From Parachlamydiales bacterium (lineage in GTDB: Bacteria > Chlamydiota > Chlamydiia > Chlamydiales > Parachlamydiaceae): a stretch of 36,142 bases of DNA. Position numbers and translations under genes: made by a program. Below, piece by piece: positions 11,839-36,142 of this stretch; within the stretch, counting starts at the first letter, position 1; every line of letters begins with the position of its first letter. The stretch spans positions 1 to 36,142 of the forward strand of contig JAGVJP010000007.1 of the NCBI GenBank assembly GCA_020051075.1. The letters are read 5' to 3'. The notes under the pieces are model-generated. The model had not been told where the DNA came from and did not search any database. It was given only the letters and a program-made list of their open reading frames with translations.

Positions 11839-13635
11839 TTATATACCACTAGAAGATGAAGATTGTGATGGGATCGATCCTCCGCCACTTTCAGGTTGAT
11901 CTGCAATCGCTGGGGTTCCACTAGGAATCAAAGGTCGGATGCCTTCAATTATTCCTCTGCTGAGCTGATTTATCTCATCATCATCCAGCCTTGACAATTC
12001 TTTAACCATTTGAGTGATCTGTGTGACAATCTGACTAGATTGTCTGCTACATTCTAGGAAAAATGCAGGATCTGATATTGAGTGGTTTAGATCCGAAGCC
12101 GGACCAGTTGATGATGAAGATGATGAGGTTGATCCTCCTACACCTCCACCTTGCTCAGAAGTCGTTGGAGTTTCAACTGCAGGAGCCGTCATTGGGAGTC
12201 CACTAATTGATGAAGAAGACACTGTAAGAGAACTGCTTTCTGGAACAGATCTTTCCTCATATTCACGAAGTATTTCCTGAATTTGCAAAGCAAAAGAGTG
12301 ATCCATCCTCTCCGCAAAGGAGGCTATCTGCTCAACCAAAATTGGCTTCAGTCTACGAAATTCCAATGAACCACTTAATAATATTGCTTTTACGACTTCG
12401 ACCATTGCGCGGGATGTTGAATCACCAGCAGTCTCACGTAATCGATTGTATTCAATTACAAGAAATTCCATCTTGAGTCTTCTATTTTCACTGTTGCTCA
12501 TCTGAATAACCGAAACCAACCGCAAGAGATGCTGTTGGTATGCATTAGATATTTCTTGTCCGATTCCAGAAGAAGCATCACATATCCTTATGAGCCGCAA
12601 TTCATGATCTTCTGAACTTCTAAAGACTATTTGGCGCAATCTATCCTCTTCCAGTAAAAGTGCTTTAGCGAGTTCTAATAACCTCGATTGCAAATGGTAA
12701 GTTTGAGAATTTGGCCTTTCCTCAGGAAAAATGAACCCGCCTATTTCATGCAACAATTCAAGAATCCGTTCTGCCCCAGATCGACAAACAGTCACGATCG
12801 AATCTGCGTCAACACTATTTTCTTGCGCAACAGCCGTCATTTGTTGAACCAATCTCATAAGTAGTTCTTGCTGTGCTGTTACACATATTTTTAAAATCTT
12901 CACGTTCGCACTAGTGCTATCCGCCGTCGACAATTCTTCTCCTCGTACGAAACCGACACTTCGATCTATATATTCATTGGAAATTTCAAAGTTTTTTCTC
13001 GAAACTTCCAATTGTATGCCTTGAATCCTTTCAACTAAGTTTCCAGACTCCGCACCTAAAGAAAGAACTTCATGTTGAAGTTCAAGATAACGCAATACAA
13101 TTTTTCTAGCTAATTTAATCACCATTATATCTACAGACTCACGTGGGAGAGAAACGAACTGATTTGCCTGAACCATTCCCTGAAGTTTTCCTAATCGCCT
13201 CACCAATTTTGTTTCTTCAAATGGCCTTATAGCAAATTCATGAACAGATCGATCTGTACTCCTCTCCTCAAGAATTTGTGTGAGATGTTGAAACGACTGA
13301 ATAGAATTTCGAATATACCCTTCTAAAGCACCCATACTCTCTGAAATACTTGTTTCGCCTTCTCGAGCACTTGGCTCTACCAAAATTCGTAATTGATTTT
13401 GCATCGAATTGATTTCATGTTGAAGCAACTGCCTTTGTGTGGCAATTTCATGATCAACAGCAATTCTAGACAACTCCAAGCGGGTTTTCGCAAGACCGAT
13501 GATTCTACTAGTCTCAATCAAAGAGCCAACTTTATTCTCTAATTGCTGAACCATCCGCCCAACATACCCAGTTTGCATGCTCCCTTTTCTGAAGTTTGAA
13601 GTAGTTGAAAATAACCCCGATAATCCTTGCATCAT
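11839..13635 (-). CDS. Hypothetical helical protein, mosaic member of the stand-alone C-terminal-domain family
   Basis: 598-aa ORF with AGGAG RBS. It contains family segments GYVGRMVQQL, IGQEISNAYQQHLLRL...SRAMVEVVKA and DPAFFLECSRQSSQIVTQITQMVKEL, plus two Ser/Gly-rich tail modules. Confidence 0.85.
   Translation of the reverse strand: MMQGLSGLFSTTSNFRKGSMQTGYVGRMVQQLENKVGSLIETSRIIGLAKTRLELSRIAVDHEIATQRQLLQHEINSMQNQLRILVEPSAREGETSISESMGALEGYIRNSIQSFQHLTQILEERSTDRSVHEFAIRPFEETKLVRRLGKLQGMVQANQFVSLPRESVDIMVIKLARKIVLRYLELQHEVLSLGAESGNLVERIQGIQLEVSRKNFEISNEYIDRSVGFVRGEELSTADSTSANVKILKICVTAQQELLMRLVQQMTAVAQENSVDADSIVTVCRSGAERILELLHEIGGFIFPEERPNSQTYHLQSRLLELAKALLLEEDRLRQIVFRSSEDHELRLIRICDASSGIGQEISNAYQQHLLRLVSVIQMSNSENRRLKMEFLVIEYNRLRETAGDSTSRAMVEVVKAILLSGSLEFRRLKPILVEQIASFAERMDHSFALQIQEILREYEERSVPESSSLTVSSSSISGLPMTAPAVETPTTSEQGGGVGGSTSSSSSSTGPASDLNHSISDPAFFLECSRQSSQIVTQITQMVKELSRLDDDEINQLSRGIIEGIRPLIPSGTPAIADQPESGGGSIPSQSSSSSGI

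Positions 13636-36142: not shown

Follow-up and report, generated by a model that had tools for sequence, protein, structure and literature searches.

Related systems

It is, to our knowledge, only recently that SecA-type motors have been reported as parts of giant proteins, and we know of nobody who can say what these motors do. The locus described here, from a Parachlamydiales bacterium (GenBank assembly GCA_020051075.1; 2.94 Mb in 133 contigs), combines such giants with small genes whose products are related to the giants' own C-termini. It lies on a contig of 36,142 bp (C132; JAGVJP010000007.1), which was analysed in its entirety and is referred to below as the window. In order of transcription the genes concerned are giant2, a small pseudogene, S338, giant1, S401, and S598; every long open reading frame (ORF) from 11,839 to the contig end is on the minus strand, and the gene calls agree with the six co-oriented genes, in this order, of a preliminary description made from the sequence alone. 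The shared C-terminal part, ~230 aa long and predicted to be helical, is called the tail domain here.

Giants with a motor of this sort have been described from Omnitrophota and Actinobacteria (West-Roberts et al., 10.1101/2023.11.21.568195). In the accessible part of that report, they have a divergent SecA DEAD motor with a preprotein-binding domain and without scaffold or wing, and coexist with a normal SecA; their lengths go as high as 85,804 aa, transmembrane regions are numerous, carbohydrate-active domains occur, and the bacteria are free-living predators. What the present locus shares with them, as they are presented there, is a SecA motor lacking scaffold and wing and embedded in a giant ORF. 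It differs in that its giants, of ~4,300 aa, have helical repeats in the N-terminal part and a single hydrophobic stretch and carry a new tail domain of which free copies occur in adjacent genes, and in that their bearer is apparently an obligate intracellular bacterium. Short stand-alone secondary SecA paralogues consisting of the motor only, in a locus with type-I-secretion-related genes, are described in the available portion of Kamneva et al. (2015, PMC4452313). Here as there, the housekeeping SecA is accompanied by a second motor of SecA type; unlike those paralogues, this one is embedded in a giant. The ten flanking window ORFs scanned include no gene of HlyD or TolC type.

Polymorphic toxins of the CdiA/Rhs type offer another parallel, in that sequence akin to the C-terminus of a large protein is present again in further copies behind it (Zhang et al., 2012, PMC3482391, in the sections available; a single line there also mentions SecA-like helicase-related domains among Amoebophilus effector domains). 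In contrast to these systems, the window has no immunity genes and no recognised trafficking domain; its small genes come with a separate ribosome-binding site, ATG, and hairpin; and the tail, far from being hypervariable, is better conserved in nucleotides between giant1 and giant2 than any other stretch. An orphan-cassette array of the CdiA/Rhs kind is ruled out by the separate starts, the lack of room for immunity genes, and the conserved tail. Both the independent starts of the small genes and the absence of interspersed immunity-like ORFs had been noted in the preliminary description, and both are confirmed: an AGGAG-type ribosome-binding site lies 6-9 nt 5′ of the ATG in each small gene, and the intergenic gaps (100-493 nt), which are taken up by sequence upstream of the genes, the frameshifted tail of one of them, and the relic of another, hold no ORF of at least 100 aa.

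A similar arrangement is that of the Chlamydia-specific Effector_1 family (DUF582; PF04518), in which a C-terminal domain of long paralogues also occurs in stand-alone neighbours. The domain, of ~370 positions, is C-terminal in ORFs of 750-890 aa and also forms adjacent stand-alone ORFs of ~395 aa, with 4-5 copies per genome; in the genome G052, for example, ORFs of 776 and 395 aa are adjacent. Unlike the locus here, Effector_1 comes without a motor or giant. It is also unrelated to the tail domain in sequence, by hmmscan (no match), by hhalign of the two profiles (A2 vs. A6: probability 0.1%, E 0.46), and by its absence from this genome (0 matches).

A tail domain shared by giant and small proteins

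The alignment of giant1 with the 338-aa protein, which the preliminary description had found to be free of gaps by hand, is equally so by BLASTP. The last ~240 aa of giant1 (15081..27914, minus strand; 4277 aa from a TTG, or 4259 aa from an alternative ATG at 27860) match S338 (28211..29227, minus) at 2e-19, with 25% identity over 214 columns and 0 gaps. The small pseudogene (29557..30305, minus) matches giant1 at 4e-11, over 165 columns and again with 0 gaps. For S401 (13736..14941, minus) the value is just 0.010, over 188 columns at 16% identity, and for S598 (11839..13635, minus) it is 3e-5, confined to the last 56 residues. The proposed homology of the giant C-termini to the small proteins accordingly stands for S338 and the pseudogene, is weak by BLASTP for S401, and in S598 concerns a rearranged and partial relative.

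A hidden Markov model (HMM) of the domain, built from five copies and scored on 12,831 ORFs of the genome of at least 60 aa, matches eight of them: four giants and four small genes only. The scores of S401 (2.7e-98) and giant2 are not independent, as their rows form part of the model. S598, which is outside it, scores 3.8e-24 as four partial pieces, for which reason we regard it as a rearranged partial relative and not as a clean copy. The domain occupies 15084..15899 of giant1 and 30720..31490 of giant2 (both minus strand), aa 1-245 of S338, where a Pro/Thr/Ser-rich tail follows, and aa ~122-340 of S401, where it stands between a degenerate partial repeat and a low-complexity tail. The tails of the small proteins are rich in Ser, Thr, and Pro, and terminate in SSSSSSRWEE or SSSSSSSRWD. 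Two motifs are family-wide, N-x-S-E-x-G-x-L near the start of the domain and D-P-x-F-x-x-C near its end. These results support the tail domain as a real, autonomous module common to giants and small proteins.

The preliminary description had spoken of two giants; both are present, but the genome has four, and giant2 is complete only with a second contig. Within the window giant2 is a C-terminal part of 1807 aa (30717..36142, minus strand, read from 36140 to 30717), open at the contig end, with a P-loop_SecA match (1.1e-11). The end of the window (36044-36142) is identical to the start of contig C54 (1-99), and through this exact 99-nt overlap the locus continues onto C54, which contributes the missing N-terminal part of 2493 aa and brings giant2 to 4268 aa. 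Upstream of giant2 on C54, and with no small gene between the two, there is one more giant (G3; at least 4507 aa); a fourth, G4, of at least 4455 aa, occupies contig C109. Giant1 and giant2 are 60-66% identical and G3 and G4 58%, with ~35% identity between the two pairs.

We favour, if tentatively, the view that the tail domain is a helix-bundle pairing module whose free copies serve the giant as accessory or regulatory subunits; it seems to us quite possible, somewhat short of probable. The giants form an undescribed family of ~3,600-4,900 aa in host-dependent bacteria, built in the order long helical-repeat N-terminus, intact SecA-like ATPase without the scaffold and wing that engage SecY, one conserved hydrophobic stretch, helical region, and ~230-aa all-helical tail. 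The tail domain has been copied more than once into neighbouring genes, yielding proteins that consist of the domain and a disordered tail. In their proposed role these proteins would attach to the corresponding domain of the giant. The giant itself might be a membrane-anchored, ATP-driven machine acting at the host interface.

Distribution of the domain and recurrence of the pairing

The domain and the giant family are new, and match no described family. The small proteins have no Pfam match above cut-off and none in NCBIfam; the best match to the domain in a profile search of the PDB was a designed protein (E 0.011); and the ESM Atlas returned no usable match for S338. With Pfam, NCBIfam, PDB, and profile comparisons all empty, the earlier suggestion that the domain belongs to no characterised family has held up. 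A literature search found no account of the domain or of the giant family, in a selection covering few subscription journals, so that a prior description elsewhere is possible.

The domain was not found in the 40 relatives searched, nor in 399 other scored genomes of the phylum (G045 was left unscored). A query from the middle part of the giant does match in 37 of these 40 genomes. Apart from one marginal match (1e-4), it is the motor part of the query, up to residue ~680, that matches, mostly in SecA-sized ORFs of ~1000 aa. A word-indexed protein search with P0003 returned the window's own proteins only, and the A2 profile in the same kind of search added just P0014.

HMMER over 1.84 billion representative proteins gave 21 matches at E ≤ 0.001, five from this genome and 16 from outside. 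The latter comprise seven small proteins (251-388 aa), three fragments, and six long proteins with the domain near the C-terminus; the best of the small ones is P0008, at 7e-50. SecA_DEAD is present in three of the 16 and P-loop_SecA in a fourth. In five of the six long proteins the last ~1000 aa are collinear with the four giants of this genome, in the order hydrophobic stretch, helical region, low-complexity linker, and tail domain. The seven small proteins begin ~30-50 aa before the N-x-S-E motif. With the two motifs common to them, giants and small proteins make up a single family, rare and widely scattered.

Outside this genome the context could be read at one locus, in a 4.3-Mb gammaproteobacterial metagenome-assembled genome (G410) located with the query P0021; searches with P0015 and P0008 found no locus in metagenome contigs, and one with P0019 found none in genome contigs. 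The G410 giant is collinear with giant1 over its whole length and has a SecA_DEAD match of 1.9e-40. It is split into 2814 and 1723 aa by a single in-frame TGA (L026:9557-9559) in the middle of the helicase C-domain, which could reflect a pseudogene, a sequencing error, or read-through. Convergent to it and 194 nt downstream is P0024, ~293 aa from its ATG, which is a free copy of the giant's tail (62% protein identity). These two are the only matches to the domain in that genome, and P0024 repeats the 3′ end of the giant in inverted orientation, over 362 nt (74% identity) and 278 nt (81%). Sixty relatives of G410 yielded one marginal domain match (1.2e-4). The pairing of a giant with an adjacent free copy therefore recurs in both genomes with readable context, which belong to two phyla; stand-alone copies beside SecA_DEAD giants elsewhere, a check proposed in the preliminary description, were found in the sole outside context that could be read. 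A TrbI gene and two DUF6750 genes, all of conjugation type, lie near the G410 pair (L026:20426-24553). To judge by these genes, the pair may stand beside a mobile element, which would fit a patchy spread across phyla. No M50 peptidase gene is present among the six ORFs scanned beside the pair. A third instance of the pairing is hinted at by P0008 and the fragment P0017, which are 58% identical and for both of which the cluster tables give a longest contig of 3582 nt.

A maximum-likelihood tree was made from 21 domain copies, leaving out P0010, P0013, P0017, S598, and P0018 as fragmentary or partial. In it the giants of this genome, all four, cluster together (100/97), and a clade of its small genes with P0008 and P0009 is sister to them (81/82). 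P0024 falls with the G410 giant and with a further giant, P0021 (100/100), apart from the small genes of the window, and free copies have consequently arisen at least twice from giant tails. In both origins the cut lies ~30-40 residues before the N-x-S-E motif.

Duplication, conversion, and selection

The locus contains direct repeats with a period of ~15.6 kb, which imply a tandem duplication of a unit comprising a giant, a small gene, and an S598-like gene. The sequence 3′ of S338 is ~75% identical in nucleotides to the stretch following S401. The likeness extends over a hairpin, a ribosome-binding site, and ~34 codons at the start of S598, after which there is a stop. As the shared stretch runs into a stop past ~34 codons, a second S598-like gene evidently decayed after S338; its relic, a gene start of 102 nt (28022..28123, minus strand; 34 codons, then stop), lies between S338 and giant1. 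The hairpins were seen by reading the sequence: a perfect one of 11 bp at 28152..28179, 3′ of S338, and a similar one at ~13673-13701, 3′ of S401 (both minus strand). A scan for consensus terminators did not list the one after S338.

The small genes have exchanged sequence among themselves. The pseudogene and S338 are 94% identical in nucleotides over the upstream region and the first ~40 codons and divergent beyond, and an internal stretch of S598 is 85% identical to the tail-coding part of S401; this patchy identity marks them as a recombining cluster of paralogues. The pseudogene has a first frame of 194 aa (30305..29721) and a frameshift near 29725, to be recognised by the homologous sequence that runs on past its stop in another frame, to ~29557.

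A conversion tract links the two giants. Between giant1 and giant2, dS is 0.24 in the tail domain vs. 1.08-1.76 in 11 other segments, and nucleotide identity rises from 0.57-0.63 to 0.92 at 15,899, staying at 0.84-0.98 up to the stop codon. The boundary at 15,899 is sharp, and lies ~30 codons before the homology with S338 begins. The low dS and the abrupt jump in identity identify this as a gene-conversion tract matching the tail domain, with which it coincides in giant1.

One explanation of these exchanges would make the small genes a recombination reservoir, donors that swap or diversify the giant tail in the manner of orphan cassettes. A conversion tract that is exactly the domain is what such a reservoir might leave behind, and the inverted repeat formed in G410 by the free copy and the 3′ end of its giant (362 nt at 74%, 278 nt at 81%) could serve such exchange. 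The tract, however, links giant1 with giant2 and not a giant with a small gene; at 25% protein identity in the window there is no giant-small nucleotide homology, and no giant-small repeat was listed. No recombinase or immunity gene is present among the ten flanking ORFs of the window or the six ORFs beside the G410 pair, and the small genes are complete genes. We consider a reservoir role the least likely of the explanations discussed here, and highly improbable.

Selection bears on a second explanation, that the small genes are functionless by-products of partial tandem duplications of giant 3′ ends. The C-terminal halves of S338 and S401 have a dN/dS of ~0.2, and the tail of the G410 giant compared with its free copy has 0.30; by these ratios (0.2-0.3) the free copies are under purifying selection, and this in two lineages, which is not expected of debris. 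The small genes also have intact ORFs with ribosome-binding sites, and the seven outside small proteins, from diverged lineages, keep to lengths of 251-388 aa and to starts ~30-50 aa before N-x-S-E. Contigs from RNA libraries cover S338 of a relative at a depth of 36.5, in one study in which DNA carry-over is possible. Debris would nonetheless account readily for the frameshifted copy and the 34-codon relic, for the degenerate N-terminal part of S401, for S598 as a chimera with S401 tail sequence, and for the conversion patches between the pseudogene and S338 (94% identity in the 5′ region). On balance we think it distinctly unlikely that the small genes have no function.

The motor and the membrane

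In giant1 the SecA-like motor spans aa 2125-2644 (19983..21542, minus strand) and comprises NBD1, a preprotein-binding-like insert, and NBD2, without scaffold or wing. Pfam places SecA_DEAD at aa 2125-2475 (1e-30) and Helicase_C at 3.1e-5, and the NCBIfam SecA models match at 2.3e-50, over model positions ~42-540 of ~790. Against full-length SecA the matches end near 540-617 of ~790, the best scoring 171.5 bits vs. a cut-off of 862; the helical scaffold, the wing, and the C-terminal linker of SecA are not matched. The motor motifs GEGKS (the P-loop), DEVD, and NLAGRGTD are intact in the translation. A Pfam scan of the giants found SecA-type domains only, with no TPS, RHS, PAAR, or LXG trafficking domain and no carbohydrate-active or adhesion domain.

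Outside the motor, the hydropathy of giant1 is dominated by one conserved hydrophobic stretch, aa 3393-3480 (17475..17738, minus strand), which the hydropathy scan shows at aa ~3400-3440 (Kyte-Doolittle 1.85) and which none of the nine aligned giants lacks. It has the lowest dN/dS between giant1 and giant2 (0.05), followed by the motor (0.10), these two being the most constrained parts. The Inc proteins of chlamydiae have a bilobed hydrophobic stretch of 40-60 residues and enter the inclusion membrane by way of type III secretion. Giant1 also contains poly-serine runs, of 18 S near the N-terminus (27700-27860) and of ~30 S in mid-protein (~18700-18800).

A motor suggests a substrate, and the small proteins might be clients threaded by the giant across a membrane, their domain being recognised by the SecA-like clamp and the giant's own copy acting as a pseudo-substrate in cis. 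This would give a part to the intact motor motifs, to the preprotein-binding-domain matches (in three of the 16 outside matches, all of them SecA_DEAD giants), and to the strongly constrained hydrophobic stretch between motor and tail; for the giant motors of Omnitrophota, export of the giant or of accessory proteins has been proposed, according to the accessible part of the report (10.1101/2023.11.21.568195). On the other hand, nothing points to a channel, the hydropathy scan showing one strongly hydrophobic stretch outside the motor, and the scaffold with its two-helix finger is absent. We judge the small proteins very unlikely to be cargo of this kind. A broader model would combine several of these elements: a self-contained, membrane-anchored protein-threading machine, whose small neighbours are subunits or clients recognised through their copy of the tail domain, which was assembled at least twice by copying the 3′ end of a giant, has moved between Chlamydiales and Gammaproteobacteria, and forms a motor-plus-adaptor system without a described counterpart. 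As a whole we find this model improbable.

In G3 and G4 the shared domain is not terminal, and is followed by ~335 further residues (L002:7813-8823 in G3, L001:586-1590 in G4). Read by eye, this region has a CGDGACALHS...H (GDGxC...H) pattern, which resembles that of an OTU-type cysteine protease. Its first match in the ESM Atlas is a giant-virus protein cluster with OTU in 15% of members (score 0.88, 175 shared features), which is no more than a lead. An OTU identity is unconfirmed by Pfam (PF02338; none at E ≤ 10), by sequence matches in the PDB (none), or by any homologue.

Predicted structure and possible interaction

AlphaFold2 on an alignment of 17 rows predicts an all-helical domain (pLDDT 70.1, pTM 0.43), with one helix of 96 residues followed by three others; a model from a 7-row alignment was rejected (pLDDT 45.5). 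A shape dominated by a 96-residue helix would usually require partners. An all-against-all comparison of structures (VIA) had as its top rows designed bundles, ESCRT-III hairpins, spectrin, and ClyA/YaxB/XaxAB, which are usual for long helical models, and no fold was assigned. The structural match to pore-forming toxins or translocators contemplated in the preliminary description did not appear: the model is a generic helical hairpin or bundle, with no specific match.

Homotypic binding, also raised there, gains weak support from co-folding. The giant2 tail and S338 gave a median ipSAE of 0.52 (0.56, 0.52, and 0.44), vs. no more than 0.00 in any of three controls. Contacts are common to the runs to at least 62%, and the pLDDT of the partner is at least 54. 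The mark applied is reached by 116 of 157 solved complexes and by 2 of 215 mismatched pairs. Values of 0.60 or less include 18 of the 157 complexes and both of the passing mismatches, and a pass in this band is more often wrong than right unless binding is likely beforehand. The predicted contact is thus a modest nudge toward binding between giant tail and S338, and does not amount to evidence for it.

Several findings weigh against the free copies as subunits that pair with the giant. The co-folding pass falls in that weak band; Foldseek against the PDB found nothing at E ≤ 0.001, the fold being generic; and the best Z in the VIA comparison, 10.8, is below the ~13 typical for helical models. 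Giant and small copies in the window are just 25% identical, and no small gene follows G3. Of the small genes, one carries a frameshift, another survives as a relic, and S401 and S598 have degenerated in part, all of which fits decay no less than function. The evidence from gene neighbourhoods, lastly, comes from two genomes, as three small-protein queries and one long query located a single outside locus.

The same domain could instead be a shared targeting module: giants and small proteins would be separate secreted effectors, directed to the same host structure or ligand and not binding each other, as in the C-terminal-domain effector families of Chlamydia and Legionella. Effector_1/DUF582 of Chlamydia has just this pattern of a long protein with a C-terminal domain and an adjacent short one, and in G3 and G4 the domain precedes the ~335-aa region with the OTU-like lead, as a targeting module might precede an enzyme. 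Purifying selection and disordered tails would suit effectors too. Co-targeting, however, leaves unexplained why free copies adjoin giants in two phyla and why conversion is confined to the domain, and co-folding, weakly, speaks for direct contact. We therefore regard it as unlikely, though a serious contender.

Genomic setting and expression

The genome encodes three TLC nucleotide transporters and two FHIPEP export-gate genes, and its order is that of the genomes carrying the Chlamydia-specific Effector_1 family; on these grounds the organism is taken to be a chlamydia-like obligate intracellular bacterium. From this lifestyle, and from the weak OTU-like lead in G3 and G4, one may conjecture a secreted anti-host machine, as the preliminary description did.

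Two RNA-library runs, both from one study, contain contigs that cover S338 of a ~90%-identical relative, including one of 1165 nt over 28,373-29,364 with a word depth of 36.5. This hints weakly at expression of S338 in the relative, where carry-over of DNA is possible. In the four runs considered, the 3.1-kb stretch outside S338 was mostly without cover and is uninformative. The contigs have 30 other letters in place of 96 nt of the S338 tail, the length of which must therefore vary. Consensus scans of the window gave 38 promoter-like sites vs. 43.7 in shuffles and 11 terminator-like sites vs. 13.9, neither above the shuffled level.

Among sequencing runs, the largest share of the sampled words in any one run was no higher than 0.08. 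Two water-system metagenome runs contain short DNA contigs that match the window exactly (30722-31000 and 28746-29033); being identical, they indicate that the organism or a near-identical strain occurs beyond the source assembly.

The remainder of the window, bases 1-11,723, holds ordinary genes: hemB, ftsY, sucCD, and an M50 peptidase. The last (10365-11723, plus strand; Peptidase_M50 and TPR-like matches) is convergent to S598. Between hemB and an NAD-binding/DUF2867 gene there is a 471-aa ORF without a Pfam family (1458-2873, plus strand).

Significance

The locus is a clear natural example of a domain that has repeatedly been copied from a giant gene, and of gene conversion limited to one domain. 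As a module of 230 aa that occurs both on a giant and as free proteins, the tail domain also offers a small, tractable handle on a family of giant SecA-motor proteins. If the free copies are indeed subunits or clients of the giants, the locus would represent an ATP-driven machine of a new type, working where intracellular bacteria meet their hosts; if giants and small proteins are merely co-targeted effectors, the domain would still be a new targeting module shared across phyla.

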